Part shown: positions 3 to 18,830 of the stretch, in pieces
Position numbering within the stretch: position 1 is the first letter of the stretch
How the letters are laid out: each line of letters begins with the position of its first letter
NCBI GenBank assembly: GCA_965371185.1
Contig: CBDUXN010000001.1
Span: 1-24,000, forward strand
DNA: 24,000 nt
Direction: 5' to 3'
DNA from: an uncultured Thermoplasmata archaeon
GTDB lineage: Archaea; Thermoplasmatota; Thermoplasmata; GCA-020350865
Made by a program: the position numbers and the translations under genes
Notes under the pieces: generated by a model
The model's input: the letters and a program-made list of their open reading frames with translations, nothing else
The model's database searches: none
Told to the model about the DNA's origin: nothing

Positions 3-554
3 CCCTACCTGTTCAAGGCCCACTCATTGAAACTCAATATCAAGGGCAAGCAGTTCCCTAAACTAAAATATTACATCAACAGCATGTTAAACGATCCAAA
101 AGACCACCTATTTCAGTCCAAAACTGTTCTTAGATGCTCGGAGCTCGCAAACTCCATAAACATCCCTAAACCGGCGATCAGAGAGGTAAAAAACAGCCCA
201 GCCTGCAGGATGACAGATCTCGCCCTAGAACTGGCCAAAACCAAGATGGAGCGCCACGTAAAGGTTGAGGAGTTCTTCCTTGTAAACGATTCCGCAACGG
301 TAGCTGTGGAAGTCCCTGTATACTTAACCGAATCCGAATCAGGATTCAAAAAGCCTCTCACAGGCCACATAGATTTAATTCAAGTGAGAGGAAATCGAGT
401 ACACATCCTTGACTACAAGCCCGAGAAAGGGGGAAACGCGGCGGCCCAGCTTACCCTCTATGCCCAAAGTCTTAAAAAACGCACAGGTTTATCAGAGATC
501 ACATGCGGGTACTTTGATGAAAACGAGTATTTTCAGTTCACACAGGAGATATGA
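3..554 (+). CDS. PD-(D/E)XK-family nuclease (Cas4/RecB-like fold), 5'-partial at window edge
   Basis: The frame is open from nt 3 (no stop before the TTG at 27 used by the ORF track), so the true start is probably outside the window. The C-terminal half carries GHIDLI (Asp), ILDYKP (D-x-K) and AAQLTLYA (QxxxY), the motif order of PD-(D/E)XK nucleases. There is no C-terminal Cys cluster. Confidence 0.55.
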   Translation, partial: PYLFKAHSLKLNIKGKQFPKLKYYINSMLNDPKDHLFQSKTVLRCSELANSINIPKPAIREVKNSPACRMTDLALELAKTKMERHVKVEEFFLVNDSATVAVEVPVYLTESESGFKKPLTGHIDLIQVRGNRVHILDYKPEKGGNAAAQLTLYAQSLKKRTGLSEITCGYFDENEYFQFTQEI

Positions 555-612: not shown

Positions 613-1176
613 ATGGTTCGAAAAAGTGAACATATGTTCGAAAAAGTGAACATAAGTCCCCTGGCTATAACCGTATTGACATATTTATCTCGCTCACCAG
701 ATAAACAATTCTATGTAAGAGAGATCGCAGCCATGACAGGAGGTAGTTTGGGCGGATCCCATAAGGTTTTAAAAAAACTGTATGAAATGGGCTTAATAAG
801 TAAGCAAAAGAGCGGACGAAACTTGTACTACAAAATAAACCAAAAGAACCCGGCCATCAAGTATTTTAAAATTTTTATAAATATTCAAGAATTGAATGGG
901 GTAATTAAAGAAATTGCACATGAATGTAATAAGATCATTTTGTATGGAAGTTGCTCAACAGGTGAAGATGTTTTGGACAGCGATATAGACCTTTTTGTAA
1001 TTACAGAGAATGTAAAAGATATTAAACAGTTCCTTCGGAACAAATGTATTACCAATAGACAGTTGAAACCAATAATTATGCTCCCGCATGAATTCATTAA
1101 ATTAAAGGATAAAGACCGGGCTTTCTATAATGAAATAAATAAGGGTATAGCCTTGTGGCGTGGCAGCTATGAATGA
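613..1176 (+). CDS. Winged-helix + minimal nucleotidyltransferase (MNT) protein, putative antitoxin of a HEPN/MNT module
   Basis: N-terminal wHTH-like segment (AITVLTYLSRSPDKQFYVREIAAMTGGSLGGSHKVLKKLYEMGLISKQKSGRNLYYKI). It is followed by the MNT signature ILYGSCSTGEDVLDSDIDLFVI (GS...DxD). The start is ambiguous between ATG 613 and in-frame ATG 634. Confidence 0.8.
   Translation: MVRKSEHMFEKVNISPLAITVLTYLSRSPDKQFYVREIAAMTGGSLGGSHKVLKKLYEMGLISKQKSGRNLYYKINQKNPAIKYFKIFINIQELNGVIKEIAHECNKIILYGSCSTGEDVLDSDIDLFVITENVKDIKQFLRNKCITNRQLKPIIMLPHEFIKLKDKDRAFYNEINKGIALWRGSYE
617..654 (+). repeat. Exact 18-nt tandem direct repeat ttcgaaaaagtgaacata (617-634 and 637-654, period 20 nt) spanning the two candidate start codons
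   Basis: Exact match read from the sequence. Each copy follows an ATG (613, 634) and contains the TTCGAA palindrome. Confidence 0.9.
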
Positions 1177-3793: not shown

Positions 3794-4753
3794 ATGGTAA
3801 AAGTGGCAGAAGAATGGCTTAACATCTGTGGCGGTTGTGAAGTAACTATTTTGGACATCGGTGAACCATTGCTGGATCTGCTTGCGCAGCTGGAGTTCGT
3901 GCATATACCTGTTCTGATGGACCACAAGTATTTTGGACAGACTGGTGAAGACGATACGAACATCATCCAGATACCAGAAGCGGATGTGGGCATAATCTCC
4001 GGCGGTGTGAGGAACGAGAAGGAGAAGCATGTGGCAGAGGCGATGCGAAAGAGCTGTAAGACGCTAATAGCGCTGGGCTCGTGCGCATGTTTTGGTGGCA
4101 TCCCTGCCTTGGCGAATATGTATACATTGGAGGATCTGTGCAATAAAGTGTACAGGGAATCCAAGACTACGGAGCCGGCAGACACTCCTAAGGAGAACTT
4201 ACCGCCTCTTTTGGACAGGGTTTATGCAGTGGATGAGATCATAAAAGTTGATGTGGCTATTCCAGGTTGCCCAACAAATCCTGTTCTAATCGTTGAGGCT
4301 TTAACAGCTCTTTTAGAAGGTAAGGAGTGGTCAATGCCTGAGAGAAGCGTTTGCGATGACTGTCCAGTAAAGAGAGAGAAGAAGGCCGAAGTGACGATCA
4401 AAAGACCTCTGCAGGATGCACAGTTTACTCCGGGCGAATATGACAGCTGGCGATGCTTCAACGAGCAGGGGATCATTTGCTTGGGCACTGTAACGAAATC
4501 CGGATGTGGCAAAACAGCTACAGAAGGAGAGCAAACGGTACCTCGATGCGTTAAAGGATACATGCCGTGCAGAGGGTGCTTTGGGCCGATAAGAAAGGGC
4601 GCCAATCCACTGGTGGACATGATGAGCGCGATGTCAAGCATCGGTTTGAATGCTAGAGATGTTGACGATAGAAGAGCGCTGCTGAACAGATACATCGGAG
4701 CACAGAAGAGGTTGAGACCATTACCTGCGAGACCCAGACCTGGAGGGGGGTGA
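3794..4753 (+). CDS. mvhG: F420-non-reducing [NiFe] hydrogenase small subunit (MvhG/VhuG type)
   Basis: Cys-rich small-subunit pattern: NICGGCEV, LGSCACFGGIPA, IPGCP, CDDCP, CLGTVTKSGCG, CRGCFGP. It is separated by 5 nt from the large-subunit gene, which has its own GGTGAT SD. Confidence 0.9.
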   Translation: MVKVAEEWLNICGGCEVTILDIGEPLLDLLAQLEFVHIPVLMDHKYFGQTGEDDTNIIQIPEADVGIISGGVRNEKEKHVAEAMRKSCKTLIALGSCACFGGIPALANMYTLEDLCNKVYRESKTTEPADTPKENLPPLLDRVYAVDEIIKVDVAIPGCPTNPVLIVEALTALLEGKEWSMPERSVCDDCPVKREKKAEVTIKRPLQDAQFTPGEYDSWRCFNEQGIICLGTVTKSGCGKTATEGEQTVPRCVKGYMPCRGCFGPIRKGANPLVDMMSAMSSIGLNARDVDDRRALLNRYIGAQKRLRPLPARPRPGGG

Positions 4754-4758
4754 TATAA

Positions 4759-6204
4759 ATGGGAAAGACTCTTACAATAGCACCGGTATCGAGAATTGAA
4801 GGTCATGCGAAAGTGACCATTCAACTGGACGATGCAGGCAATGTTGCAGATACCTTCGTCAACGTGGTGGAACTTAGAGGCTTTGAGAAGTTCTGCATCG
4901 GCAGGCCAGTGGAGGAATTACCAAGGATAACCACCAGCATATGCGGTGTGTGCCCGTGGTCGCATCATCTTGCCTCAGCAAAGGCGAATGATGCAGTTTT
5001 TGGTGTGGAGCCCCCACCTGCCGGCAGGAAATTGAGGGAGCTGTGTAACAGCATAGCCTTTACAGAGGAACACATCCTGCACTTCTTCTTCCTTGCAGGA
5101 CCCGACTTCGTGATGGGTCCGGATGCGGACTACTCTGTTAGGAACGTTATAGGCATCGCTCAAAAGTTCCCGGACATCGGAAAGAAGGTGGTAAGGAACA
5201 GGCATTTGGGTGCACAGATGCTTACCATTGTCTCAGGCAAATCAATACATCCTGTTACCGCGGTACCAGGCGGTTTCAGCAAGCCACTTACGGCAGCTGA
5301 AAAGGATAAAGTACTCCCAATGGCAGAAGAGGTGCTTGAGTTCGCAAAGTTCGCAATAAAATTTGCAAAAGAGGATCTATTCTCGAAATACATCGATACT
5401 GTGAAGACGCTCGGGGTCATAAAAACAGGCTTTTTGGGCACGGTTCGTGACGATGGATCAATGGACCTATACGATGGTAAAGCGAGGCTCATGAAGCCGG
5501 ACGGAAGCTATGAGGAGTTCGAATATACCAACTACACGGATTATATAGAAGAAAAAGTCTTACCCTGGACCTACCTTAAGTTCCCGTATGCAAAGAGCTG
5601 GGGCGAAGGATTCGATATGAATCTGGACGCACCTAAAGGCATCTATAGGACGAACACATTGGCAAGAATAAACGTTGTGGACAAGATTCCCACGCAGCTA
5701 GCGCAGGCGGAGCTTGAAGAGTTCCGCAAGGAGTTCGGAAGACCAGCACAACAGACACTATTGTACAATTGGGCCAGGTTGATTGAGTTACTGTACAACG
5801 CAGAGTACATGGTGGAACTGCTCAACGATCCGGAGATAACCAGCACGGAAACAAGGGTCCCGGTTACACCCAGGGCCGCTCATGGTATCGGCGCTACCGA
5901 AGCACCGAGAGGCACTTTGATCCATGATTACGAGACAGACGAAAGGGGCATGGTCACGAATGTGAACCTGATCGTTGGTACAACCCACAACAACGCTCCA
6001 ATAAACATGTCGGTGAAACAGGCTGCTACGAGTCTAATAAAAGACGGCAAATATGACCAGGGCATTTTAAACCAGGTTGAGATGAGCATTCGGGCATATG
6101 ACCCGTGCCTGAGCTGTGCAACCCATAACCTGGACGGTACCATACCAGTGAAAGTGGACATAATGGATCATAGGGGAAAGCTGCTGAATACCTTTAAAAA
6201 TTAA
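4759..6204 (+). CDS. mvhA: F420-non-reducing [NiFe] hydrogenase large subunit (MvhA type, group 3c-like)
   Basis: N-terminal RIEGH and [NiFe] ligand motif ICGVCPWSHH. C-terminal DPCLSCATH is followed by a 25-aa tail, the part removed by the maturation endopeptidase. The 481-aa size and the MvhG/MvhD neighbours fit Mvh. Confidence 0.95.
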   Translation: MGKTLTIAPVSRIEGHAKVTIQLDDAGNVADTFVNVVELRGFEKFCIGRPVEELPRITTSICGVCPWSHHLASAKANDAVFGVEPPPAGRKLRELCNSIAFTEEHILHFFFLAGPDFVMGPDADYSVRNVIGIAQKFPDIGKKVVRNRHLGAQMLTIVSGKSIHPVTAVPGGFSKPLTAAEKDKVLPMAEEVLEFAKFAIKFAKEDLFSKYIDTVKTLGVIKTGFLGTVRDDGSMDLYDGKARLMKPDGSYEEFEYTNYTDYIEEKVLPWTYLKFPYAKSWGEGFDMNLDAPKGIYRTNTLARINVVDKIPTQLAQAELEEFRKEFGRPAQQTLLYNWARLIELLYNAEYMVELLNDPEITSTETRVPVTPRAAHGIGATEAPRGTLIHDYETDERGMVTNVNLIVGTTHNNAPINMSVKQAATSLIKDGKYDQGILNQVEMSIRAYDPCLSCATHNLDGTIPVKVDIMDHRGKLLNTFKN

Positions 6205-6252: not shown

Positions 6253-6699
6253 TTACATCCTGTAAGGACTCGGTCCCAAGGCTTTTATCTGCTCCGTCAT
6301 CTCCTTCATAACCTCTGCGAACCTTTGACCTTCTGATGCGGAAATCCATTCCAAGCGATATCGCTCAGGCTCGAGGCCCAAATCCTCCAATAGAAGGAAG
6401 ATCGCATCTGCTCTTTTCTCAGCTATCAGGTTGCCTTCAATGTAATGACAGTCTCCAGGGTGGCAGCCGCACATCAGAACTCCGTCAGCACCTTTTGAAA
6501 GGGCATCGATCACTAAATTGGGATGGACCATCCCTGAGCACATGACGCGGATTATCCTGATATTCGATGGATATTGAAGTCTTGAAGTGCCTGCCAAATC
6601 TGCCCCGGTGTAGGAACACCAGTTGCAACAAAATGCGATTATCAACGGCTCGAAATCCTCTTCTCCTGCTATTCCTTCAGTTGTCCCCCCCTCCACCAT
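6253..6699 (-). CDS. mvhD: MvhD-type hydrogenase/Hdr-bridging [2Fe-2S] subunit (minimal 148-aa form)
   Basis: FlpD/MvhD Cys pattern: FCCNWCSYTGADLAG, RVMCSG, GADGVLMCGCHPGDCHY. ATG directly abuts the stop of the upstream HdrA gene (TAAATG), and GGAGGTGG SD lies inside the upstream gene. Confidence 0.92.
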   Translation of the reverse strand: MVEGGTTEGIAGEEDFEPLIIAFCCNWCSYTGADLAGTSRLQYPSNIRIIRVMCSGMVHPNLVIDALSKGADGVLMCGCHPGDCHYIEGNLIAEKRADAIFLLLEDLGLEPERYRLEWISASEGQRFAEVMKEMTEQIKALGPSPYRM

Positions 6700-9600
6700 T
6701 TAAGCCACCTCCAATACTGCATCTACCATTGCACCCAACTGATTCAATTTGAAACCTTTCACCATTATTCCCTGCTTTGGACAGGTCGCCATGCAAACCC
6801 CACAGCCCTTGCAGGCGGTTTCGTTTCTCTCCACGGTCTTTTTTACCTGTCCGTTTCTCATATACTCGATTAGAGTCAATGCATTATATGGACAAGGATC
6901 TATGCAGTAAGCACAGCCGTCGCAGTTCTCATCTATTACCTCAGAGATCGTGGGCTCAAGTTCCATCGTTTCATTGCAGAGAATCGTGCATGCCCTGGAT
7001 ACCGTACCGCATGCCTGAGAGATGCTTTCATCGATGAATTTCGGGCCATGCGCCAGCCCACAAAGGAACACACCATCATTTGCGAAGTCAACTGGACGAA
7101 GCTTCATATGCGCCTCCAAGAAGAATTTATCCTTGCTCAGCGGAACTTTAAGCATCTGAGCCAATTCTTCATTGTCAGGTTGTGGGAGTGTTGCCGCGCT
7201 CAAAACAACATATTCGGTTTTGATCGTTATCTGTTCGGTCAGTATCGGGTCTGTTACGGTTACGGCCATACCGTCTCCATTCTTAGCGACTTCCGGCATA
7301 TGTTCATCATCGTATCTAATGAATCTCACACCCTTGTCCGCGGCTTCCCTGTAGTAGTCCTCCCTGAAACCATAGGATCGAATGTCCTTGTATAGCACGA
7401 AAATCTCTGCATCAGGGTTCCTCTCCTTGATCTTCAGCGCGTTCTTAATTGCATCTGCACAGCATATCCTGCTGCAATATGGTCTTTCCTCGTTTCGTGA
7501 ACCCACGCACTGAATCATGACCACGCTGTTCGGCTTGAGGTCGGCCTTGGCCAGCTTTTCCTCCAGTTCCATTTGTGTCAAGACGCGCTCATCCTGTCCA
7601 TACAGGTATTCCTTAGGTTTATACTCCAATCCACCGGTAGCGACTATGACAATACCATGCTCGATTTCCGTTTCATCTGAGAGCACGGTTTTAAAATTAC
7701 CCACGAACCCTTCGATGCTCTTCACCGTTGTTCCGAGATGTACCTTGATTTTCTCGTTGTCCACGACCTTTTCAACGGTTTGTTTTAAAATCTCCTGCGG
7801 ATCCTCGTCCTTCTCGCTGAGCACATAGTGAATTCTTCTTAAATTCCCGCCGAGTTCCTTCTCTCTTTCCACGAGATGAACTTCGTAGCCCTGTTTTGCC
7901 AGTTCTAACGCGGCAGTCATACCACTCAAACCCCCTCCGATTACCAGTCCCGACTGAAACACGTTTAAGGTTAATTCGTATAAGGGTTCAAGCAGCCTTG
8001 ACTTCGCTACAGCCATTCTTACCAGATCTTTCGCCTTCAGGGTTGCTTTTTCAGGTTCGTGCATATGAACCCAGGAGCATTGGTCTCTGATATTCGCCAT
8101 TTCAAAGAGGTAGGGGTTCAGACCGCCTTCCTTGGTGGTGCTTCTGAAAAGAGGTTCATGGGTCCTTGGAGTGCAGGAAGCCACAATAACCCTGTTTAAG
8201 TTGTGCTCTTGGATTTTCTCCTTGATACCTTTCTGAGTGTCTTCCGAGCAGGTATAGAGGTTGTGCTCAGAATAAACCACATTCGGCAAAGTCTTAGCGT
8301 ATTCCACAATCTCTGGGACATTAACCACTCCTCCAATATTGATGCCGCAATGGCATATAAAGACACCTATGCGTGGCTCCTCATCGCTAATATCCCTCTC
8401 TGGAGGATACTCTTTGATAGTGATCATTTTTCCTCTCTCAGAGGAGATCATCGAGGATGCTTTTGCTGCCGCACCGCTTGCCTGCGCCACCGTATCGGGA
8501 ATGTCCTTGGGACCGTTGAACACACCGCTGACGAATATCCCGGGTTTGGAGGCCTCTAGAGGCGTGAATACGCCAGTATCGCAGAAATTGTACCTGTTCA
8601 GTTCGATGCCGACCTTTTCTGCCAATTCCTTTACGTTCTCTGGCGGTTGAAATCCTGTAGATAGGACAACGAGGTTGAACTCCTCCTCCTTCAGCTCTCC
8701 ATCTTCCACATACTTCACCATCAAATTCTGAGTTTCAGGCACCTCCGTGATCTCAGCCACCCTGCATCTTGTGAACCCTATTTTATGCTCCTCCTCTGCC
8801 CTCTTGTAGTAATCGTCAAATTCCTTACCGAACGCCCTGAGATCCATGAAGAATATGTGGGATTTCAAGCCCTCAGAGTGCTCCTGTGCGATTATGGCCT
8901 CTTTTAAGGCGAACATGCAGCATACCGATGAGCAGTATTCGTTTCCCATCTGGCTGTCCCTGCTCCCAACGCATTGGATGAACGCCACCTTCTCAGGTAT
9001 GTCACCGTCGGAAGGGCGCATTACCGTGCCCGCGAATGGGCCTGTGGCACTCAAGAACCTCTCGAATTCCATGCTCGATACGACGTTTTTGTATCTGCCG
9101 TAACCGTATTCTGTCTTCAGGGAAGGGTCGAACATGCTGTAACCCGGAGAGAGGATGATGGAGCCCACATTGAGGTCAAATTTCTGCTCCTCCTGGTCGT
9201 ACTCCACTGCATTGGCCTTGCACTCCTCCTCGCATATACCACAGCCTATGCACTTCTCCTTATCTATCATGAATTTTAGGGGCACAGACTGAGGATAACG
9301 AATGAACATAGCCCCTCTTTTTGTGAGCCCCCAGTTGTATTCATCGATGGCCTCAACAGGGCATTTGGAGCCGCATACACCGCATCCGGTACATTTCTCC
9401 TCGTTGATCCTTCTCGGTCTTCGAACGAGCGTCACTTTGAATTTACCTGCCTCGCCTTCCACGGATTCGATCTCCGTGTTGCTGATGACCTCGATGTTAT
9501 GATGCCTGCCTGTGCCAACAAGTTTCGGAGCCATGATGCACATAGCACAGTCGTTGGTGGGGAAAGTCTTGTCCAATTGGGACATCACCCCACCTATGCT

Positions 9601-9717
9601 GGGCAGTTTGTCGATAAGATACACCTTGAAACCTGAATCTGCCAAATCAAGTGATGACTGCATCCCGCTTATTCCGCCGCCAACAACCAGCACGGCCCCG
9701 ATCTTATCACCGCTCAT
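6700..9717 (-). CDS. hdrA: Tandem-fused double HdrA-like flavoprotein (1005 aa), copy 1
   Basis: First half: VVGGGISGMQSSLDLADSG, DKTFPTNDCAMCIMAPK, inserted 2x[4Fe-4S] ferredoxin (CTGCGVCGSKCP, CIGCGICEEEC), CVGSRD..YCSSVCC. Second half: HdrA N-terminal-domain motif GVFICHCGINIGG..ASCTPRTH..CSWVH, a second VIGGGLSGMTAALELAKQG, CVGSRNEERPYCSRICC, FLEAHMKLRPVD, and a C-terminal ferredoxin (CDGCAYCIDPCP, CKGCGVCMATCP). ATG overlaps the upstream stop (ATGA at 9714-9717), with GGAGGTGA SD. Confidence 0.9.
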   Translation of the reverse strand: MSGDKIGAVLVVGGGISGMQSSLDLADSGFKVYLIDKLPSIGGVMSQLDKTFPTNDCAMCIMAPKLVGTGRHHNIEVISNTEIESVEGEAGKFKVTLVRRPRRINEEKCTGCGVCGSKCPVEAIDEYNWGLTKRGAMFIRYPQSVPLKFMIDKEKCIGCGICEEECKANAVEYDQEEQKFDLNVGSIILSPGYSMFDPSLKTEYGYGRYKNVVSSMEFERFLSATGPFAGTVMRPSDGDIPEKVAFIQCVGSRDSQMGNEYCSSVCCMFALKEAIIAQEHSEGLKSHIFFMDLRAFGKEFDDYYKRAEEEHKIGFTRCRVAEITEVPETQNLMVKYVEDGELKEEEFNLVVLSTGFQPPENVKELAEKVGIELNRYNFCDTGVFTPLEASKPGIFVSGVFNGPKDIPDTVAQASGAAAKASSMISSERGKMITIKEYPPERDISDEEPRIGVFICHCGINIGGVVNVPEIVEYAKTLPNVVYSEHNLYTCSEDTQKGIKEKIQEHNLNRVIVASCTPRTHEPLFRSTTKEGGLNPYLFEMANIRDQCSWVHMHEPEKATLKAKDLVRMAVAKSRLLEPLYELTLNVFQSGLVIGGGLSGMTAALELAKQGYEVHLVEREKELGGNLRRIHYVLSEKDEDPQEILKQTVEKVVDNEKIKVHLGTTVKSIEGFVGNFKTVLSDETEIEHGIVIVATGGLEYKPKEYLYGQDERVLTQMELEEKLAKADLKPNSVVMIQCVGSRNEERPYCSRICCADAIKNALKIKERNPDAEIFVLYKDIRSYGFREDYYREAADKGVRFIRYDDEHMPEVAKNGDGMAVTVTDPILTEQITIKTEYVVLSAATLPQPDNEELAQMLKVPLSKDKFFLEAHMKLRPVDFANDGVFLCGLAHGPKFIDESISQACGTVSRACTILCNETMELEPTISEVIDENCDGCAYCIDPCPYNALTLIEYMRNGQVKKTVERNETACKGCGVCMATCPKQGIMVKGFKLNQLGAMVDAVLEVA

Positions 9718-10499
9718 GCCTTCACCTCCTGCATTATGGAGATGTATTTCGGTGTAAAACCGTCGATGCTATCAAGTGCCAACTGATTTTTCTTTCTCAA
9801 ATAAACTACGTGATCCAGAACCTTGTCAGTGGGGATTTCGATCTCCTTGGCAAGCTCCTTTACAGACATCGGATTCTCTTTTATCAGCTCCAGGAGCCTC
9901 TTTCTATAAAACTCAGCTTCTACAGCATCCCCCATAAACTCGTCCCATTCCTCCTGGGTTTTCTTCTCATTGTAAACGTTGCCCAGCTCCACGATCTGTC
10001 TCTCTTTGGCTACAATGGCTCGAAGCCTGAAGTCCAATGCTGCAAGCTTTGCAGCGTTTACGTTCTGCAAAAGTTTCTCATCAGGCTTCTCGCCAGCCAA
10101 TGGGCTTGGCCCCAATTCTTTGATTTGGTTTGTGAATTCCCTCACCAGCTTTGCGAAACGCTCGCCCTCCGAGGCTGCCACCCATTCCATTCTCAGCCTT
10201 TCAGGCTCCAACCCTGCTCTTTTCACAAGTTGTCTCGTCATTTTAATTTTCCTCTCGGCCTGATAGTTACCTTCAAGGTAATGACAGTCCCCGGGATGGC
10301 ACCCGCCAATGAACATACCGTCAACGCCTTGAGCGAAGGCCTCGAGTATAATGTAAGGATCGATCCTACCAGAGCACATCACTCTGATGATCCTGATGTT
10401 CGGTGGATATTGGAATCTGCTCACGCCGGCCAGATCTGCTCCTGCGTATGAGCACCAGTTGCAGAGGAAACCAACGATCTTGGGCTCGAATTCCACCAT
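9714..10499 (-). CDS. MvhD-type protein with ~125-aa C-terminal extension ending in a winged-helix-like domain (261 aa)
   Basis: The core (res 1-133) matches MvhD: FLCNWCSYAGADLAG, RVMCSG, GGCHPGDCHY. The extension has a conserved helical segment (DFRLRAIVAKERQIVELGNVYNE) and then RLLELIKENPMSVKELAKEIEIPTDKVLDHVVYLRKKNQLALDSIDGFTPKYI, read as helix-turn-helix plus wing. Confidence 0.85.
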   Translation of the reverse strand: MVEFEPKIVGFLCNWCSYAGADLAGVSRFQYPPNIRIIRVMCSGRIDPYIILEAFAQGVDGMFIGGCHPGDCHYLEGNYQAERKIKMTRQLVKRAGLEPERLRMEWVAASEGERFAKLVREFTNQIKELGPSPLAGEKPDEKLLQNVNAAKLAALDFRLRAIVAKERQIVELGNVYNEKKTQEEWDEFMGDAVEAEFYRKRLLELIKENPMSVKELAKEIEIPTDKVLDHVVYLRKKNQLALDSIDGFTPKYISIMQEVKA

Positions 10500-13400
10500 C
10501 TATCCCACCTCCCTCACTGCTGCCTTAACCTGGGCTATCAGCTGTTCGTCTGTAAATTGTTTTAGTGATACCGCCTTTTCAGGGCAGCTCGCCGCGCAGG
10601 TCCCGCAGCCCTTGCAAAGCACCTCGGTTACTCTCGCTATATCGTTCTCGTCCTTCTCTATCGCGTTGAATGGGCATAGCACAACGCAAGTACCACATCC
10701 TGTACAGATATTCTCATCTATGGTGGAAACCACCCCTTCTGCCTCAAGGATCTCTTTGGAGAGGATCGTGGAGGCTCTTGATACGGCAGCGCTCGCTTGG
10801 GAAACACATTCCTCAAAGAATTTTGGTGAGTGGGCAAGTCCGCAAAGGAATATACCTTCAGTGGCGAATTCTACGGGACGAAGCTTCATATGCGCTTCCA
10901 AAAAGAATCCATGCTTGCTCAGCGGCACCTTCAACATCTGCGCCAACTCACCGTTATCTGGGTGTGGTATTGTGGCTGCGCTCAAAACCAGAAGGTCTGG
11001 TTCAATTACAATTTCCTCGTCAAGGAACTGCTCTTTGATCTTCACCCTCAAACCCTTCTTATCGCTCACCTCGGGTTTTGTTTCGTCATCGTATCTAATG
11101 AACTTTATACCTTTTTTCGCTGCCTCCTCATAAAACACCTCGCTGAAACCGTAGGTTCTGATATCTTTGAATAGCACATAGACATTTGCATCCGGTTTCA
11201 ACTCCTCGATCTTTAGGGCGTTTTTCACTGCCTCGGTGCAGCATACTCTACTGCAATACGGCCTCTCTTCATTTCTGCAGCCAACGCATTGAATCATTAC
11301 TATGGTATCTGCATCGACCTTACTCTTAGCCAGCCTTTCCTCCAGTTCCAGTTGGGTTAGAACATTTTTATTTTTACCGTAAAGGTACTCCGTAGGCTTG
11401 TACTCCTGTCCTCCAGTTGCCACTATGACTATTCCATGCTCGATTTCCTTATCTTCGCCGTTATGGTCTACAAGCGTTTTGAAGTTGCCAATATATCCCG
11501 ATATATTTTTCACTGTGCTGTTTGTGAATACATGGATCTTTTCATCTGAATCAATGCTTTTTATCAGTTTTTTCATTTTTTTCTGGATGTCCTTCTTCTC
11601 GCCAACCATTTCGTAATGTATTCGTTTCATTAGACCTCCAAGTTCATTCTCCCTTTCAACGATGAACGCCTCATAGCCTTGTTTAGAAAGCTCTAATGCT
11701 GCGGTCATGCCGCTCAATCCACCCCCTATGACCAGACCTGAAGGTTTAATGTCTATGGGAACTCGTTTTAAGGGCTCAAGTAAACCAGCCTTTGCCACCA
11801 CCATTCTTACCAAATCTTTGGCTTTTTGTGTTGCTTTCTCAGGTTCATGCATATGCACCCATGAGCACTGGTCGCGAATATTCGCCATCTCAAAAAGATA
11901 CGGGTTTAAACCCGCCTCAGCCACCGTATTTTGGAAAAGGGGTTGATGTGTTCTAGGAGTGCACGATGCAACTATCACTCTGTTCAATCCGTGCTCTTCG
12001 ATCTTTTCTCCGATCTTCTTTTGCGTATCCTGAGAGCATGTGTAGAGATTATTCTCAGCATAGACCACATTTGGTAGTGTCTTTGCATACTCCACCACCT
12101 CAGGTACATTCACTACACCACCTATGTTGATGCCGCAGTGGCATACAAAAACACCTACGCGGGCCTCTTCACCACTTATATCTCTCTCTGGTGGGTACTC
12201 CTTTACAGTGACCAGTTTTCCACGCTCAGAGGCGATGACAGATGAAGCTTTGGCTGCTGCACCACTTGCCTCTGACACGCTGTCAGGGATATCCTTTGGT
12301 GCACCAAATGCTCCGCCTACAAATATCCCGGGGCGAGAGGTCTCTAACGGGGAGAACAATATATCTGTAGAGCAAAAATCGTATGGGTTCAGCTCTATAC
12401 CGAGCTTGGTGCTCAGATCCTCTGCATCCTTTGGTGCTGTCATTCCCACAGCCAGTGCTACCATATCGAACTCCTCTGAGACCAGTTGCCCTTCTTTGAT
12501 ATAAGTTATGAAAAGATTATTGGTTTCCGGGTCCTCAGCGATAGAGGATATCCTGTTGTTTTTTATGAAGTTTATACCATGCTCTTTCTCAGCCCTTATG
12601 TAGTAATCATCGAATTCTTTACCGAAGGCACGCATATCCATGAAGAATATGGTTGCCTTCAAGCCCGGGGTGTGCTCCTGCGCTATCACAGCCTCCTTTA
12701 TCGCGAACATGCAGCAAACAGAGGAACAATATGGGTTGCCGATGCTTCTGTCTCTGGAACCCACACATTGTATGAACGCTATCTTCTTCACCAGCTCCCC
12801 ATCTGAGGGCCTTAAAACCAATCCACCGTATGGACCTGTGGCGCTGAGCATCCTCTCCAGCTCAAGGCTTGAAACAACGTTTGGATACCTGCCGTAGCCG
12901 TATTCCCTTCTCTTTTTGAGTAAATCAAATTCATCAAAACCAGGTGAGACAATTATTGAACCCACATTCAATTCTTGTGTTTCCTCCTCTTGGTTGTAAA
13001 CGATTGCACCTGCCGTGCAGTTTCTTTCACAGTTTCCGCAGCCGATGCAATGATCTTTATCTATGGTGAATATTAGTGGCACAGCTTGAGGATATCTAAC
13101 GTAGATAGCTTTGCGAACCTTGAGACCTTTATTGTAGTCATCCACTACCTCAACAGGGCACTTTTGGGTACAGATTCCACATCCAGTACATTTGTTCTCA
13201 TCTACATATCTGGACCTTTTGATGATGGTGACCTTGAAATTACCTGCATCCCCTTCGACCTTCTCTAAATGCGCATTCGTTATCAGATCTATATTACGAT
13301 GCCTTCCAGTCTCAACCAATTTTGGGGCCATGATGCACATGGCACAGTCGTTTGTGGGAAAGGTTTTATCAAGCTGGGCCATAGCCCCGCCGATGCTCGG

Positions 13401-13511
13401 GCTTTTGTCCAAAAGGTATACTCTAAACCCTGAATCGGCCAAGTCCAGGGAGGACTGCATGCCTGCGATTCCTCCACCCACAACCAGAACTGCTCCTACC
13501 GCATCGGTCAT
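10500..13511 (-). CDS. hdrA: Tandem-fused double HdrA-like flavoprotein (1003 aa), copy 2
   Basis: Same motif series as copy 1: GGGIAG, DKTFPTNDCAMC, CTGCGICTQKCP, CIGCGNCERNC, GVFVCHCGINIGG, GGGLSG, CVGCRNEERPYCSRVCC, CTGCGTCVVLCP, CKGCGTCAASCP. ATGA overlap with the upstream MvhD-like gene (13508-13511). Its stop abuts the next ATG (10499/10500). Confidence 0.9.
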   Translation of the reverse strand: MTDAVGAVLVVGGGIAGMQSSLDLADSGFRVYLLDKSPSIGGAMAQLDKTFPTNDCAMCIMAPKLVETGRHRNIDLITNAHLEKVEGDAGNFKVTIIKRSRYVDENKCTGCGICTQKCPVEVVDDYNKGLKVRKAIYVRYPQAVPLIFTIDKDHCIGCGNCERNCTAGAIVYNQEEETQELNVGSIIVSPGFDEFDLLKKRREYGYGRYPNVVSSLELERMLSATGPYGGLVLRPSDGELVKKIAFIQCVGSRDRSIGNPYCSSVCCMFAIKEAVIAQEHTPGLKATIFFMDMRAFGKEFDDYYIRAEKEHGINFIKNNRISSIAEDPETNNLFITYIKEGQLVSEEFDMVALAVGMTAPKDAEDLSTKLGIELNPYDFCSTDILFSPLETSRPGIFVGGAFGAPKDIPDSVSEASGAAAKASSVIASERGKLVTVKEYPPERDISGEEARVGVFVCHCGINIGGVVNVPEVVEYAKTLPNVVYAENNLYTCSQDTQKKIGEKIEEHGLNRVIVASCTPRTHQPLFQNTVAEAGLNPYLFEMANIRDQCSWVHMHEPEKATQKAKDLVRMVVAKAGLLEPLKRVPIDIKPSGLVIGGGLSGMTAALELSKQGYEAFIVERENELGGLMKRIHYEMVGEKKDIQKKMKKLIKSIDSDEKIHVFTNSTVKNISGYIGNFKTLVDHNGEDKEIEHGIVIVATGGQEYKPTEYLYGKNKNVLTQLELEERLAKSKVDADTIVMIQCVGCRNEERPYCSRVCCTEAVKNALKIEELKPDANVYVLFKDIRTYGFSEVFYEEAAKKGIKFIRYDDETKPEVSDKKGLRVKIKEQFLDEEIVIEPDLLVLSAATIPHPDNGELAQMLKVPLSKHGFFLEAHMKLRPVEFATEGIFLCGLAHSPKFFEECVSQASAAVSRASTILSKEILEAEGVVSTIDENICTGCGTCVVLCPFNAIEKDENDIARVTEVLCKGCGTCAASCPEKAVSLKQFTDEQLIAQVKAAVREVG

Positions 13512-14312: not shown

Positions 14313-14597
14313 TCACTCCGGTTCTACTCCAGACATCAAACCTCTTACACAAACAGAAAAATTACAGGCATCGGTTCTCGCCCTCTCACAGTAATGGCAC
14401 CGCAACGTTAACAACACTTCCCTGATGATCCATTCTTTTGTCTCGTCGTCAACATCTGGAAGATTCTTTTTGATGTCTTCTATGCTTTTGGTTTGCACAT
14501 CCTTCCATTTCGGCTGTGTTGAAAGGAGCATCCTTTTCTTCCAGGCATTCCTCATCTCCTCTATCTTCTTCTGCTCTTCTTCGTTTAATTCGCTCAA
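14313..14597 (-). CDS. Small Cys4 protein (94 aa), paralogue of 17605-17913
   Basis: Conserved block with its paralogue: W.(D/Q)VQTK.I...LP(D/E).D(D/E)ETK..I.R..LLTLRCH(Y/S)CERAR(T/S)D(A/E)CNFSVC(V/I)RGL, i.e. CX2CX7CX4C. TTG start overlaps the HdrA stop (TTGA 14594-14597) and is preceded by AGGAGGGGAT SD. An internal ATG (EEMRNAW) is a possible alternative start. Confidence 0.6.
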   Translation of the reverse strand: MSELNEEEQKKIEEMRNAWKKRMLLSTQPKWKDVQTKSIEDIKKNLPDVDDETKEWIIREVLLTLRCHYCERARTDACNFSVCVRGLMSGVEPE

Positions 14598-17500
14598 GCG
14601 ATCCCCTCCTTAAGTGCAGCGACAGCCTGTGCAAGAATCTGCAAATCCGTAAAGTGGGCAATATCAATGGCCTTCTCAGGACAAGCAGCGCTACAGGTGC
14701 CGCATCCCTTGCATAATACCTCGGCCACCTTCGCCTTCAATTCTTCCATATCAACACTTACTGCCCCGTACGGGCATACCATTTCGCAGGTACCGCAGCC
14801 TGTACATTTTTCCTCATCAACAGAAGATACCACCCCCTCAACAAAGAGCCTCTCTTTCGATAGAATCGTGGCAGCTCTTGAAACAGCAGCGCTTGCCTGT
14901 GAGATACATTCGTTAAAGAATTTGGGCGAATGAGCCAAGCCGCACATGAAGATGCCATCTGTTGCGAATTCCACTGGACGCAGCTTCATATGCGCTTCCA
15001 AGAAAAATCCGTCCTTACTCAAGGGTACCTTCAGCAGTTGTGCCAATTCAGAGTTGTCTGGGTTGGGAAGCGTTGCGGCGCTCAACACCAGGTAATCTGG
15101 TTTCAATACGATATCCTCATTCAGAAAATGATCAAAAACCTTGACTTGTAGGCCATCATCATCGGTAGCCACCGGCTTCGTTTCGTCATCGTATCTGGTG
15201 AAATTGACACCCTGCTTTGCCGCCTCTTCGTAGTAAATTTCCCTGAAACCGTATGTTCTCATATCCTTATACAGGATGAAGACGCTGATATCGGGATTCT
15301 TTTCTTTAACCTTCAATGCATTTTTAACGGCCTCCACACAGCACACCCTGCTGCAGTAGGTTCGAGCTTCGTCCCTGCAACCTACACACTGGATCATAAC
15401 CACCGTTTTGGCTTTGGGATTCAATTCATTATTGAACAGAATATTATCGAATTCTAGCTGGGTAAGCACTTTTTCATTTTTACCGTATAAGTACTCCGTA
15501 GGTTTGTATTCGATACCACCTGTGGCAACGATAATTGCCCCATGTTCAAGGGTCTTCTCTTCGCCATTATGATCCAAGGTACTGACGAAGTTCCCGACAT
15601 AGCCCGAGACGTTCTTTATCACCGTATTTTTATAGACGGTAATTTTGTCGTTTGCCTCGACCTTTGAAAGGGTCTCATTCAGATACCCAGGGATATCTTC
15701 CCCCTTTAAACCGTAATGGAGTCTTTTTACCAGTCCTCCCAATTCATTCTCCTTCTCCACCAGGTAGGCCTCAAATCCCTGCTCCGCAAGTTCCAAGGCT
15801 GCCTGCATCCCGCTTATTCCTCCGCCTATTACCAGGGCGGATTGTTTTACCTCGATCGATATCTTTGGCAGTGATGTGTTCAATCTCGCTTTTGCCACCG
15901 CCATCCGTACCAGATCTTTCGCCTTCTCCGTGGCTCTTTCCGGATCGTTCATGTGGACCCACGAGCACTGATCGCGAATGTTCGCCATCTCAAAGAGGTA
16001 CGGGTTCAAACCTCCTTCAGCCACAGTGTTTTGGAACAATGGCTGATGTGTCCTGGGAGTGCAAGAGGCTACCATCACACGATTGAGGTTATGCTCCTTG
16101 ATCATCTCCTTTATGTGCTCCTGTGCATCTTGGGAACACGTGTACAGATTATCTTCCGCATGAGCGACATTCGGCAGTGTTTTCGCATATTCCACAACAC
16201 CAGGAACATCCACAACACCCCCGATATTAATGCCGCAATGACAGATAAAAGCTCCAATGCGAGGCTCCTCACCAGAAACATCCTTCTCCTCTGGATATTC
16301 CTTTACCGTGGTGAGCGTATCCCTTTGTGATGAAATGACGCTCGACGCTCTTGCTGCTGCTCCAGAAGCTTGGGCAACGCTGTCAGGAATGTCCTTTGGA
16401 TCCTGGAACACACCGGATACGAATATTCCCGGCTTGTTCGTACCTATGGGAGAGAATATGGTGGTACTGCAGAAGTCGAAATCGTTTAATTCGATCCCCA
16501 ATTTTTCGCCCAGCTCTTTTGCATGTTTGGGGTGTTCCATGCCCACCGCAAGAACGACTAAATCGAACTCTTCCTCCTTTAGTTCGCCCTCCTCGATATA
16601 TACTATTTTGAGATTCTTTGTATCACGCATCTCCTCAACAGAAGAAATGCGATTGTTGCTGACAAATCTCACTTTATGTTCATCGGCAGCCCTGATGTAA
16701 TAATCATCGAATTCCTTGCCGAAGGCCCGCATGTCCATGAAGAATATGGTTGAACTCAGGCCTGGAGTATGTTCTTGCGCTATAACCGCCTCTTTTATTG
16801 CGAACATGCAGCATACTGAGGAGCAGTATGGGTTGCCGATGCTTCTGTCTCTGGAACCCACACACTGGATAAATGCTATTTTCTGGGCTATCTTTCCATC
16901 CGATGGTCTGAGAACAACACCTCCATAGGGGCCAGTTGCGCTCAGCATGCGCTCCAATTCGAGACTTGATACAACGTTGGGAAATCTGCCGTAGCCGTAC
17001 TCCCTTCTCATGGTGCTCAGATCGAACTCCTCGAACCCTGGAGACACGATGATCGAGCCCACGTTCAGTTCCATATCTTCCGGTGTTTGGGAATATTGTA
17101 TCGCCCCAGCCCTGCACTGGGTATCGCAGATGCCGCATCCTATGCAGTGATCCTGGTCTATGCAATGGGTTGGAGGTACAGCCTGGGGATATCCGATGTA
17201 GATCGCCTTTCTGACCTTGAAGCCCCTGTTGTACTCATCCTTGACCTCAACAGGGCAGCGCTGTGTACACAGACCGCAGCCTGTACATTTGCTCTCGTCC
17301 ACGTACCGGGGCCTTTTACTCACGGTGACCTTGAAATTGCCTGCCTCGCCTTCCACCTTTTCCACATCAGCATTCGTTATCAGCTTGATGTTGTGATGTC
17401 TTCCCGTCTCAACCAACTTAGGGGCCATGATGCACATTGCACAGTCGTTCGTTGGGAACGTTTTGTCCAACTGAGCCATGGCACCGCCAATGCTGGGTGA

Positions 17501-17608
17501 GCTGTCAACTATGTACACATAATAACCTGAATCAGCCAAATCCAGTGACGACTGCATGCCTGCTATTCCGCCGCCTATGACAAGAACAGCACCCACCTTA
17601 TCGCTCAT
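14594..17608 (-). CDS. hdrA: Tandem-fused double HdrA-like flavoprotein (1004 aa from ATG 17608), copy 3
   Basis: Motif series as copies 1-2: GGGIAG, DKTFPTNDCAMC, CTGCGLCTQRCP, CIGCGICDTQC, GAFICHCGINIGG, GGGISG, CVGCRDEARTYCSRVCC, CTGCGTCEMVCP, CKGCGTCSAACP. The track start (17662) adds 18 non-homologous residues. ATG 17608 (MSDKVGAVLVIGGG) aligns with the paralogues, has GGAGGTG 7 nt upstream, and forms ATGA with the upstream stop. Confidence 0.9.
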   Translation of the reverse strand: MSDKVGAVLVIGGGIAGMQSSLDLADSGYYVYIVDSSPSIGGAMAQLDKTFPTNDCAMCIMAPKLVETGRHHNIKLITNADVEKVEGEAGNFKVTVSKRPRYVDESKCTGCGLCTQRCPVEVKDEYNRGFKVRKAIYIGYPQAVPPTHCIDQDHCIGCGICDTQCRAGAIQYSQTPEDMELNVGSIIVSPGFEEFDLSTMRREYGYGRFPNVVSSLELERMLSATGPYGGVVLRPSDGKIAQKIAFIQCVGSRDRSIGNPYCSSVCCMFAIKEAVIAQEHTPGLSSTIFFMDMRAFGKEFDDYYIRAADEHKVRFVSNNRISSVEEMRDTKNLKIVYIEEGELKEEEFDLVVLAVGMEHPKHAKELGEKLGIELNDFDFCSTTIFSPIGTNKPGIFVSGVFQDPKDIPDSVAQASGAAARASSVISSQRDTLTTVKEYPEEKDVSGEEPRIGAFICHCGINIGGVVDVPGVVEYAKTLPNVAHAEDNLYTCSQDAQEHIKEMIKEHNLNRVMVASCTPRTHQPLFQNTVAEGGLNPYLFEMANIRDQCSWVHMNDPERATEKAKDLVRMAVAKARLNTSLPKISIEVKQSALVIGGGISGMQAALELAEQGFEAYLVEKENELGGLVKRLHYGLKGEDIPGYLNETLSKVEANDKITVYKNTVIKNVSGYVGNFVSTLDHNGEEKTLEHGAIIVATGGIEYKPTEYLYGKNEKVLTQLEFDNILFNNELNPKAKTVVMIQCVGCRDEARTYCSRVCCVEAVKNALKVKEKNPDISVFILYKDMRTYGFREIYYEEAAKQGVNFTRYDDETKPVATDDDGLQVKVFDHFLNEDIVLKPDYLVLSAATLPNPDNSELAQLLKVPLSKDGFFLEAHMKLRPVEFATDGIFMCGLAHSPKFFNECISQASAAVSRAATILSKERLFVEGVVSSVDEEKCTGCGTCEMVCPYGAVSVDMEELKAKVAEVLCKGCGTCSAACPEKAIDIAHFTDLQILAQAVAALKEGIA

Positions 17609-17913
17609 CTGAACACCTCCTGACCGGAGAGGAGACCTCTTATACATACGGAGAAGTTGCACTCATCACTCCTCGCCCTCTCACAGCTGTGGCATCTCAA
17701 CGTTAGGAGCATGTTCCTAGTGATTTTCTTCTTCGTCTCTTCATCGATTTCGGGCAGTGAGGCCAAGCATTCCTGGATGATTTTGGTTTGAACCTGCCCC
17801 CATCTTGGGAGCGTGGAGATGCGTTCCCGATCTTGCCAGGAATCTCTTATCATCTTTATTCTCCCCTTTGTACCTTTGCTCTTAGACTTGGTAGGGGGTT
17901 CTTCTCTCTTCAT
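17605..17913 (-). CDS. Small Cys4 protein (102 aa), paralogue of 14313-14597
   Basis: Same C-terminal block, LLTLRCHSCERARSDECNFSVCIRGLLSG. Basic N-terminus (KREEPPTKSKSKGTKGRIK). ATG overlaps the upstream MvhD-like stop (ATGA 17910-17913), with GGAGGTG SD. Confidence 0.65.
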   Translation of the reverse strand: MKREEPPTKSKSKGTKGRIKMIRDSWQDRERISTLPRWGQVQTKIIQECLASLPEIDEETKKKITRNMLLTLRCHSCERARSDECNFSVCIRGLLSGQEVFR

Positions 17914-18830
17914 CTGAGCACCTCCTCTTTCAGGGTTATGTAAAGAGGCATCACGCCGTCGAACTTGTCCACCATAACCAAACCTCTATCTTTAAGGGTG
18001 ACGATATGCTGCAGCACCTTTTGCGGGGGGAGTTGGATATTGGAAGCGATATCTATAACGGAGTAGGGTCCGTCCATGGTCATAAGAAGAATTTTCTGCC
18101 TGGCAATCTCATCATCTATCGCTCTCTCCATAAGATCGTCAAATTCTTCCTGCGAAAGCTTGTTATCGTAGACATTGCCCTTCTCTATCAGCTCAATTTC
18201 TTTGGCCACAAGAGACCTCAACCTGAAATCCCTTACAGCGTTCTTGGCGGCGAAGAGGGTTTCAAGTTTTTCAATGTCGGGCTTATCTCCCGCTACAGAA
18301 CTGGGGCCCAGAGCCTTTATTTCATTAACAAAATCCTCCACAACCTTGGAAAATCTCTCGCCTTCCGATGCGGATATCCATTCCAAGCGCAATCGCTTCG
18401 GTTCAACTCCTGCCTTCTCGATCAATTTTCTTGCCAGCTTGACCTTCTTCTCTGTGAAGTAATTTCCTGTTATATAGTGACAATCGCCGAGATGGCAGCC
18501 TCCAACGAGCACACCATCCGCACCGTGAATGAACATCTCAATTATGAGAACAGGGTCAATCCTGGAGCTGCACATTACCCGAACCGTCCGAGTGTTTGTA
18601 GGATACTGGTATCTGCTCACGCCCGCCAAATCCGCACCTGCGTAAGAGCACCAGTTGCAGAGAAAGGCTATGATCTTCGGCTCGAATTCTTTTCCAGTTT
18701 TTTCCTCTTCTGCTTTGGCTTCAACTTTCTTTTTGAGCTTTAATTTGATGGTTTTCTTCTTTGGCTTCTCAGCTTTATCTTCCACTTTCTCCTCTTTAGA
18801 GGCGTTTTGTAAGCTCTGTTCTTCGCTCAA
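17910..18830 (-). CDS. MvhD-type protein with Lys/Glu-rich N-terminal extension and C-terminal winged-helix-like extension (306 aa)
   Basis: Core: FLCNWCSYAGADLAG, RVMCSS, GGCHLGDCHY. C-terminal extension: DFRLRSLVAKEIELIEKGNVYDN ... KILLMTMDGPYSVIDIASNIQLPPQKVLQHIVTLKDRGLVMVDKFDGVMPLYI. The N-terminal 47 aa are K/E low complexity. TTG start (TTGA overlap 18827-18830) is supported by GGAGGAGGTGG 5 nt upstream and by the absence of any internal Met before the core. Confidence 0.8.
   Translation of the reverse strand: MSEEQSLQNASKEEKVEDKAEKPKKKTIKLKLKKKVEAKAEEEKTGKEFEPKIIAFLCNWCSYAGADLAGVSRYQYPTNTRTVRVMCSSRIDPVLIIEMFIHGADGVLVGGCHLGDCHYITGNYFTEKKVKLARKLIEKAGVEPKRLRLEWISASEGERFSKVVEDFVNEIKALGPSSVAGDKPDIEKLETLFAAKNAVRDFRLRSLVAKEIELIEKGNVYDNKLSQEEFDDLMERAIDDEIARQKILLMTMDGPYSVIDIASNIQLPPQKVLQHIVTLKDRGLVMVDKFDGVMPLYITLKEEVLR

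Follow-up and report, generated by a model that had tools for sequence, protein, structure and literature searches.

Three MvhD proteins with a BamF-type winged-helix extension, interleaved with double HdrAs in a Thermoplasmata archaeon

Introduction

Many anaerobes conserve energy by means of flavin-based electron bifurcation in HdrA modules, which are wired to a range of different partners. Here, we describe a 24,000-nucleotide stretch of DNA from an uncultured Thermoplasmata archaeon (assembly GCA_965371185.1, contig CBDUXN010000001.1, positions 1 to 24,000; hereafter the window), in which three genes encode MvhD proteins that carry a C-terminal extension of about 128 residues behind their [2Fe-2S] core. 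The original prediction, made from the sequence of the window, had read this extension as a winged helix-turn-helix (wHTH)-like domain that serves either in redox-dependent DNA binding or in protein docking. Our analysis suggests that the extension is probably a docking arm of the type seen in BamF, a subunit of the class II benzoyl-CoA reductase (BCRII) of Geobacter metallireducens.

An array of double HdrA and MvhD genes

The minus strand of the window, from 22,011 down to 6,253, is occupied by a tightly packed array of 11 genes whose spacing ranges from -4 to +19 nt, with a single overlap of 58 nt (-58) as the exception; such spacing is a pattern typical of the subunits of stoichiometric complexes. 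The array begins with a double HdrA that is split over two genes (A1, 18,827–22,011), which encode proteins of 433 residues (20,710–22,011) and 627 residues (18,827–20,710). These match the NCBIfam HdrA2 model at positions 140–562, and at 1–227 plus the C-terminal ferredoxin (Fd), and when concatenated are 46–49% identical to the fused double HdrAs (HdrAAs) that follow. Next come the first long MvhD (L1, 17,910–18,830), the small protein orf102 (17,605–17,913), the HdrAA A2 (14,594–17,662; 1,022 residues as called, identified by a profile match), orf94 (14,313–14,597), the second long MvhD (L2, 13,508–14,293), A3 (10,500–13,511; 1,003 residues, 72% identical to A2), the third long MvhD (L3, 9,714–10,499), A4 (6,700–9,717; 1,005 residues) and a short MvhD (6,253–6,699). 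A4 matches HdrA2 in three stretches (E = 9e-304) and contains two Pyr_redox/FAD cores that start at about residues 8 and 591, in the manner of the fused HdrA dimer BamE. Each long MvhD is therefore flanked by HdrA-type genes, these being fused HdrAAs of about 1,000 residues or, upstream of L1, the split A1 pair. The 58-nt overlap is that between A2 and orf102 and can be attributed to a mis-set start of A2: the GTG start as called makes the protein about 17 residues longer than its paralogues, and the true start probably lies some 17 codons downstream.

The short MvhD, the last gene of the array, adjoins a divergent pair of plus-strand genes for [NiFe] hydrogenase subunits (3,794–6,204), namely an MvhG-like (3,794–4,753; PF01058, E = 3e-29) and an MvhA-like protein (4,759–6,204; PF00374, E = 1e-32), which are followed by HycI- and HypE-like maturation genes. 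The window shares about 75% nucleotide identity and the same synteny with CP070739.1 and with other metagenome-assembled genomes (MAGs), and its nucleotide and protein similarities place it in a Thermoplasmata archaeon related to Methanomassiliicoccales.

Inspection of the open reading frames (ORFs) and their translations confirmed that there are three long MvhD paralogues and one minimal MvhD. The short protein (148 residues), which ends in IKALGPSPYRM, stops seven residues past LGP, whereas the long forms (306 residues for L1, 261 each for L2 and L3) continue for 128 residues beyond the equivalent GP(S/N)(P/S). All four contain a full-length FlpD/MvhD domain, covering positions 1–123 of the 123 in PF02662 at 176–189 bits (cut-off 22.3), with E-values of 3e-52 for L1, 3e-56 for L2, 6e-56 for L3 (residues 8–130) and 5e-56 for the short MvhD. 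Five cysteines (C13, C16, C42, C67 and C72 in L3) are kept in all four window proteins, and C42, C67 and C72 are invariant in the sequence alignment (alignment A1). In L3, the MvhD core spans residues 1–133 (10,101–10,499) and is 59% identical to the MvhD of PDB 5ODC (Foldseek E = 2e-14); the extension was originally placed at about 9,717–10,100, and residue 134 indeed begins at 10,100. The corresponding extensions lie at 13,511–13,894 in L2 and 17,913–18,296 in L1. As had been claimed, they are conserved among the three paralogues, with pairwise identities of 42–52%, far beyond chance, and they are 78–80% identical to orthologous extensions in related MAGs; between L2 and L3 the core is 73% and the extension 50% identical.

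The additional length of L1 is N-terminal: residues 1–45 form a Lys/Glu-rich tail of low complexity, and its TTG start overlaps the end of the preceding HdrA gene. In related arrays (loci, here given three-digit numbers) the first long MvhD is likewise longer, at 268–325 residues in L017, L027, L037 and L044.

Fold of the C-terminal extension

The assignment of the extension to the wHTH fold holds up, with an AlphaFold2 model, Foldseek and a consistent set of sub-threshold helix-turn-helix (HTH) profile matches in agreement. These matches were to PF0610-like_N (E = 4e-7), HTH_20 (6e-5, with L2), HTH_5 (5e-4, with L1) and an NCBIfam ArsR/SmtB model (1e-4), and their scores fall below the curated cut-offs given in brackets: 20.2 bits for HTH_5 (22), 23.3 for HTH_20 (27) and 18–22 for NCBIfam HTH_metalloreg (55). 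In the AlphaFold2 model of full-length L3 (predicted local distance difference test, pLDDT, 85.9; predicted template-modelling score, pTM, 0.85), the core is followed by an acidic helical spacer (residues 134–198; 9,906–10,100; net charge -4), which includes the DFRLR helix and the conserved GNVY(N/G)E loop. Here, short helices at 141–155, 157–164 and 166–172 lead into the loop GNVYNEKKT (173–181), beyond which lie a long helix (182–205), helices at 213–220 and 224–236, and a beta-hairpin (240–254); the wHTH itself comprises residues 199–254 (9,738–9,905). When the extension was modelled by itself (pTM 0.59), the spacer formed one long helix, the three short helices appearing only with the core present.

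Searched against the PDB with Foldseek, the extension-only model retrieved wHTH proteins only (HlyU, NolR, SmtB, CzrA, Zalpha and MarR-type proteins; best E = 1.3e-3, probability 1.0). It shares its topology with ArsR/SmtB repressors such as SmtB (1SMT), HlyU (3JTH) and NolR (4OMZ), with a Foldseek probability of 1.0 and TM-scores to the target of 0.55–0.62. Unlike these repressors, to which it is 15–25% identical, the window wHTH has no metal site and no alpha5 dimerisation helix, the L3 protein stopping 7 residues past the wing in the model, and it is attached to an Fe-S electron-transfer subunit. Within the family, conservation in at least 90% of members is confined to two residues, N174 of the GNxYGE loop and P250 of the wing. 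Neither lies on the recognition helix, the polar positions of which are not conserved across the family.

Distribution and fusion architectures of the extension

A profile built from the extension only was used to search 1.84 billion representatives of protein clusters formed at 50% identity. This retrieved 326 clusters at E <= 1e-3, of which 171 had E <= 1e-10, in a family that ranges over Deltaproteobacteria, Bathyarchaeia and Thermoplasmata. Among the best 150 of the 326, 63 consist of an MvhD core with the extension (27 complete and 36 truncated at the N-terminus), 7 are multidomain proteins that include MvhD and the extension, 70 contain the extension only and 10 have other architectures. 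Many of the 70 extension-only representatives are probably fragments, since the sole case that could be inspected (P0197, from locus L052; representatives are given P-numbers) proved to be the tail of a frameshifted long MvhD encoded between two HdrAAs.

The multidomain proteins place the extension alongside further redox modules. In P0117, a protein of 1,737 residues, an HdrA is followed by MvhD (598–720), the extension (742–838), a ferredoxin and a GltD/NfnB-like domain, and P0135 joins MvhD, the extension and a GltD/NfnB-like domain in the same order. In other fusions the extension is C-terminal, preceded by HdrA and MvhD in P0025 and by a polyferredoxin and MvhD in P0121, P0139 and P0054. 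A wHTH embedded within a 1,737-residue oxidoreductase is hard to reconcile with the role of a transcription factor.

Pfam and NCBIfam hold no model dedicated to the long form of MvhD. Source annotations name its members 'hydrogenase iron-sulfur subunit' or 'F420-non-reducing hydrogenase subunit' and, for some JGI entries, wrongly, 'biotin operon repressor', a label that stems from the wHTH.

A further set of representatives (P0063, P0075, P0078, P0095, P0110, P0115, P0120, P0131 and P0144; P0137 and P0140) hints at an extension-like module elsewhere. The small proteins among them (120–138 residues) have an N-terminus of their own, followed by a GN(K/V)Y loop and a wHTH that resemble the extension, and those of 516–756 residues have the module beside a C-terminal ferredoxin domain. 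Judged from these sequences, the extension module may exist outside MvhD contexts.

Relationship to BamF and to other known systems

The closest precedent comes from an April 2026 preprint that describes cryo-electron microscopy structures of the BCRII of G. metallireducens (bioRxiv 10.64898/2026.04.10.717634; PDB 29QY, 29RC and 29RN). According to this preprint, BamE is a fused HdrA dimer and BamF is an MvhD-homologous adaptor that is more than 100 residues longer than known MvhDs; the wHTH of BamF interfaces with BamI, and BamF connects the BamGHI input module to BamED; and a selenocysteine (Sec19) in BamF replaces an MvhD cysteine that lies close to the [2Fe-2S] cluster. The statement that no MvhD-wHTH fusion had been characterised is thus outdated, BamF being described as one (bioRxiv 10.64898/2026.04.10.717634), and the fusion itself is not new. 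In the literature searched, this preprint was the only place in which an MvhD-type protein was linked to a wHTH, and there was no description of the archaeal cysteine-type long MvhDs, of their multiplicity or of an array order with a single arm-less MvhD.

The long MvhDs of the window resemble BamF in combining an MvhD [2Fe-2S] core with an extension of more than 100 residues that contains a wHTH, and in being paired with a fused double HdrA, the counterpart of BamE. They differ in their archaeal host, in having cysteine at the CNWC site and in occurring as three copies interleaved with four double HdrAs. In addition, the AOR-type BamB, BamC, the HdrD-like BamD and the NuoEFG-like BamGHI are all absent from the 24-kb window and from syntenic Thermoplasmata loci.

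The two are linked by bacterial homologues. Loci L047 and L048 contain, in order, genes for an AOR, a small ferredoxin, an HdrD-like protein, a double HdrA interrupted by selenocysteine (Sec) and a long MvhD, P0181 being encoded in clusters of this kind; upstream of the called start, its reading frame runs FCCTW-TGA-GYSAADLAG and so places Sec at the second cysteine of the window's CNWC, which matches the Sec19 reported for BamF. L3 aligns with the Sec-type P0181 over residues 41–259, through the whole extension, at 35% identity (E = 1e-48), and we therefore regard the window proteins as probable cysteine-type archaeal members of a BamF-type family. No Sec is found in the long MvhDs of the window, which read CNWCSY where the bacterial homologues have CTW-TGA-GY. 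A homologue search seeded with a Sec-type protein gave 937 matches, the best 120 of which are all long forms, come from Deltaproteobacteria or Desulfobacteraceae where the source organism is given, and include none named Geobacter. The double HdrAs of the bacterial loci L047 and L046 are also called as several fragments, probably broken at Sec codons.

Public gene calls shorten members of this family by about 40 residues, starting them at an internal MCSGR or MCTGR (L003, 8,102–8,887; L001, 9,881–10,666; L047 and L046, upstream of position 10,001). This truncation results from TTG and other non-ATG starts in archaea and from the in-frame Sec TGA within CTW-U-GY in bacteria. A Sec codon upstream of the 221-residue archaeal homologues that start at MCSGR was considered and ruled out: the upstream frame is open, with LTEFEPKIVGFLCNWCSY after the stop, and these proteins simply have a non-ATG start.

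The cores of the window proteins are those of ordinary MvhDs. They are 55–59% identical to canonical MvhD/VhuD (PDB 5ODC, 7BKB and 8RVU; Foldseek E of about 1e-14), have the same set of cysteines and, like them, are encoded beside HdrA and MvhAG. Canonical MvhDs have 130–141 residues and end at the GP(S/N)P hinge, whereas the long forms add the 128-residue spacer and wHTH. The window core also matches best the C-terminal part of the model for HdrA-MvhD fusions of the Methanosarcina HdrA2 type (NF040770; E of about 1e-55), in which the order HdrA-then-MvhD is the same; HdrA2, however, ends with its MvhD core, whereas in the window MvhD is a separate polypeptide with an additional C-terminal arm. 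HdrA3/4 of anaerobic methanotrophic archaea provide a further parallel, being HdrAs of about 1,000 residues that are made up of two HdrA units and encoded with an MvhD (Chadwick et al. 2022, PMC9012536), as are the double HdrAs of the window. In the parts of that article consulted, we found no mention of an MvhD extension or of the order (HdrAA, long MvhD) x n, HdrAA, short MvhD.

Gene order in related loci

A scan of genomes with a single peptide pattern (DFRLR...), which covers one subfamily, yielded 42 archaeal loci, mostly from Bathyarchaeia, together with Thermoplasmata and single MAGs labelled Methanocellales, Thermoproteota and Acidoferrum; no Geobacter was returned. Wherever both neighbours are visible, the archaeal arrays follow the order (double HdrA, long MvhD) x n, double HdrA, short MvhD, with n from 1 to 4. 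The short MvhD is then followed by HdrC-HdrB-MvhG-MvhA, by an FrhB-like gene or, in Thermoplasmata, by divergent mvhGA. Most Bathyarchaeia have n = 1, whereas n is 2 in L012, L033 and L044, 3 in the window and in L027, and 4 in CP070739.1 (from L037 and L005, which overlap and were merged). There is thus one long MvhD fewer than there are double HdrAs, and the only MvhD without an arm is always found at the hydrogenase/HdrBC end; in the window, this is the MvhD of the last double HdrA, beside MvhAG. Many Bathyarchaeia (L007, L024, L030, L032, L034, L036 and L041) have a second, divergent cluster of HdrC, HdrB, a split double HdrA and a short MvhD, with no long MvhD, which fits a rule by which long MvhDs occur only where more than one double HdrA is found in a row.

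Five bacterial loci encode, in this order, an HdrD-like protein, a double HdrA, a long MvhD, a GltD/NfnB-like protein of 555–557 residues (a putative NAD(P)H input module) and a 270-residue protein, so that the long MvhD lies between HdrAA and the GltD/NfnB-like gene, as it does in the fusions. Among the archaeal-type loci examined, the one deviating order (FrhB-like, short MvhD, long MvhD, HdrAA) is seen in L001 and L002, which came from a protein look-up outside the genome scan, and here too the long MvhD is found between HdrAA and another redox module. In the loci that were examined, the long MvhDs are subunits whose genes lie between, and are translationally coupled to, other redox genes.

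The genes that adjoin some of the long MvhDs raise the question of whether the arm might dock a small accessory partner, such as a four-cysteine protein of the orf94/orf102 type or the FrhB-like protein encoded upstream, instead of the next HdrAA. In the window, orf102 comes immediately after L1 and orf94 immediately before L2; P0042 (322 residues) is a long MvhD with an orf94-like sequence fused to its C-terminus; and FrhB-like genes flank the arrays of the window, L017, L044, L012, L033 and L001. We nevertheless regard this explanation as very unlikely, given that the small cysteine proteins are confined to Thermoplasmata arrays and absent from all Bathyarchaeia arrays with long MvhDs, that the window encodes two of them for three long MvhDs, and that most arrays have no FrhB-like gene nearby. 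The two proteins are paralogues by sequence comparison: orf94 (94 residues; LLTLRCHYCERARTDACNFSVC) is kept in Thermoplasmata arrays and shares with orf102 (102 residues) the motif LLTLRCHxCERxRxDxCNFSVCxRGLxSG, with cysteines spaced C-x2-C-x7-C-x4-C. Neither matches a Pfam family, and judged by their sequences they could represent an accessory subunit that binds a metal or an Fe-S cluster.

Neighbouring genes and the regulatory alternative

Upstream of the array lie an FrhB/FdhB-like gene, truncated to its C-terminal part where the window ends (23,449–24,000, minus strand; PF04432, E = 2.8e-41) and, between this gene and the first HdrA, two overlapping minus-strand genes for TATA-binding proteins (TBPs) of 185 and 182 residues (22,206–22,763 and 22,760–23,308). 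Profile searches verified the TBPs, and likewise the double HdrAs of about 1,000 residues. Both are named in the original prediction, which had taken the TBPs as a hint that the extension might be regulatory, with the state of the [2Fe-2S] cluster controlling DNA binding by the wHTH and hence expression of the hdr/mvh array. This hint did not withstand comparison, as a tblastn search of 51 related loci returned no TBP homologue. Among the closest relatives, those whose loci extend far enough upstream are L017 and L044; here the position of the TBP pair is empty, the first HdrA being directly preceded by an FrhB-like gene, or else a short MvhD lies upstream. The TBP genes look like a duplicated pair that was inserted in this genome specifically, and because the pair is not conserved in relatives it lends no support to a regulatory reading.

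Apart from the TBPs, what could be said for such a regulator is that the fold is that of ArsR/SmtB-type proteins, that weak HTH profile matches exist, that the wHTH has a median isoelectric point (pI) of about 9.3 and that some members bear the 'biotin operon repressor' label. Yet every HTH match lies below its curated cut-off, the dimerisation helix is missing from the model, the polar positions of the recognition helix vary and the conserved residues lie off it, the domain is internal in oxidoreductases of 744–1,737 residues, and the three paralogues sit within the operon as structural genes, coupled to other redox subunits. The sole structure reported for a protein of this type, moreover, shows a protein interface. 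We find no positive support for a redox-sensing DNA-binding regulator and consider it highly improbable. Of the two alternatives set out in the original prediction, it is protein docking that the fusions, the gene order and BamF favour.

Elsewhere in the window, an ORF (613–1,176, plus strand) encodes a MarR-like wHTH at its N-terminus together with a nucleotidyltransferase domain of the Pol-beta type and is adjoined by a PD-(D/E)XK nuclease-like ORF (27–554, plus strand); both are unrelated to the Hdr array. The strong homology of the protein encoded on the minus strand marks an ORF of 266 codons antisense to the L3 gene (9,651–10,451, plus strand) as a shadow ORF.

Discussion

Taken together, these data lead us to favour, with a probability of roughly two in three, the view that the extension of about 128 residues is a BamF-type inter-module docking arm and not a transcription-factor domain. 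The fold, homology, fusions and gene order can be read directly from the data; docking of any protein would follow from homology with the structure in the preprint. Each long MvhD would act as a [2Fe-2S] electron-relay subunit, its core most likely seated on the double HdrA whose gene lies immediately upstream, much as MvhD sits on HdrA in Mvh-Hdr and BamF links to BamE. The arm, consisting of the acidic helical spacer with its nearly invariant GNxYGE loop and the C-terminal wHTH, would then hold a second redox module within electron-transfer reach. The nature of this module would differ between systems, being BamGHI in the Geobacter BCRII, with the wHTH on BamI, and a GltD/NfnB-like NAD(P)H oxidoreductase, in some proteins fused to the arm, in clusters of the Desulfobacteraceae type. 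In the window, each long MvhD is followed by the next double HdrA, in one instance with a small cysteine protein in between, and this HdrAA is a possible partner.

Several lines of evidence point to the downstream HdrAA, each of them short of decisive. First, the paralogue trees are congruent with units formed by HdrAA(i) and the MvhD(i) downstream of it, the closest HdrAAs being A2 and A3 (72% identity) and the closest cores those of L2 and L3 (73%). In the fusions, too, HdrA comes before MvhD, and the arm is left to point towards whichever module is encoded next. Second, residues 6–158 of the bacterial GltD-like protein (L047, 10,668–12,341) match residues 9–169 of a window HdrAA (6,700–9,717; E = 2e-18), this shared start of about 150 residues consisting of the FAD Rossmann start with an inserted [4Fe-4S] ferredoxin, a hybrid HdrA-N/GltD architecture. 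Third, residues 206–322 of P0135, which directly follow the arm, match HdrAA residues 16–136 (E = 3e-16). The gene or domain after the arm thus starts with the same type of module in bacteria and archaea.

A number of observations weigh against a docking role or its proposed partner. The wHTH is mildly basic (median net charge +2, at the pI given above) next to an acidic spacer, and has a semi-conserved LR(K/R)(K/R)G at the end of helix 3, features that would be compatible with nucleic-acid binding; the charge analysis does not separate DNA binding from protein docking. The window encodes no BamI- or GltD-type partner, and we infer the arm's partner there from gene order alone. No class-specific indels of at least 5 columns were found between HdrAAs preceded and followed by a long MvhD (32 sequences), leaving aside a start-codon artefact. 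The preprint is not peer reviewed, and the tie between the window proteins and the solved structure runs through Sec-type homologues in bam-like clusters and the text of the preprint. Finally, the census of loci, made with a single pattern, speaks for one subfamily.

The lack of such indels would also suit an arm that folds back on its own MvhD/HdrAA, stabilising an MvhD without hydrogenase or covering the face that binds MvhG, in which case the window would encode three independent, hydrogenase-free enzymes of long MvhD and HdrAA, fed by ferredoxin or by an FrhB-like protein. The pTM of the full-length model and the fact that the short helices of the spacer form only in the presence of the core suggest that the spacer packs on the core, which counts for this arrangement, and the MvhD that adjoins mvhGA is the sole one with no arm. 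In BCRII, however, the wHTH touches a different subunit, BamI; in the fusions, the arm comes after MvhD and ahead of the module that follows; and a self-anchored arm would not require the strict position between two modules seen in all loci. On balance, we consider self-anchoring unlikely.

Returning to the docking arm, one possible extension of the idea, which we put forward tentatively and as doubtful, is that the long MvhDs daisy-chain bifurcation modules, with the core of each on HdrAA(i) and its wHTH on the N-terminal FAD/ferredoxin segment of HdrAA(i+1). If this were true, such arrays would encode a linear super-complex of two to five bifurcating units, four of them in the window, in a chain with a short MvhD and the hydrogenase MvhAG at its end, to which Bathyarchaeia would add HdrBC. 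Several bifurcation steps would then be coupled in series, beyond the two-module series of BCRII.

For annotation, the family is one whose long forms are labelled only 'hydrogenase iron-sulfur subunit', are often truncated by 40 residues and are in some cases called a biotin operon repressor. For the biology of these organisms, our analysis suggests that adaptor arms of the BamF type are not peculiar to Geobacter, and the archaeal gene order, with a long MvhD between every pair of double HdrAs and a short one at the hydrogenase end, predicts serially connected bifurcation modules in uncultured archaea.

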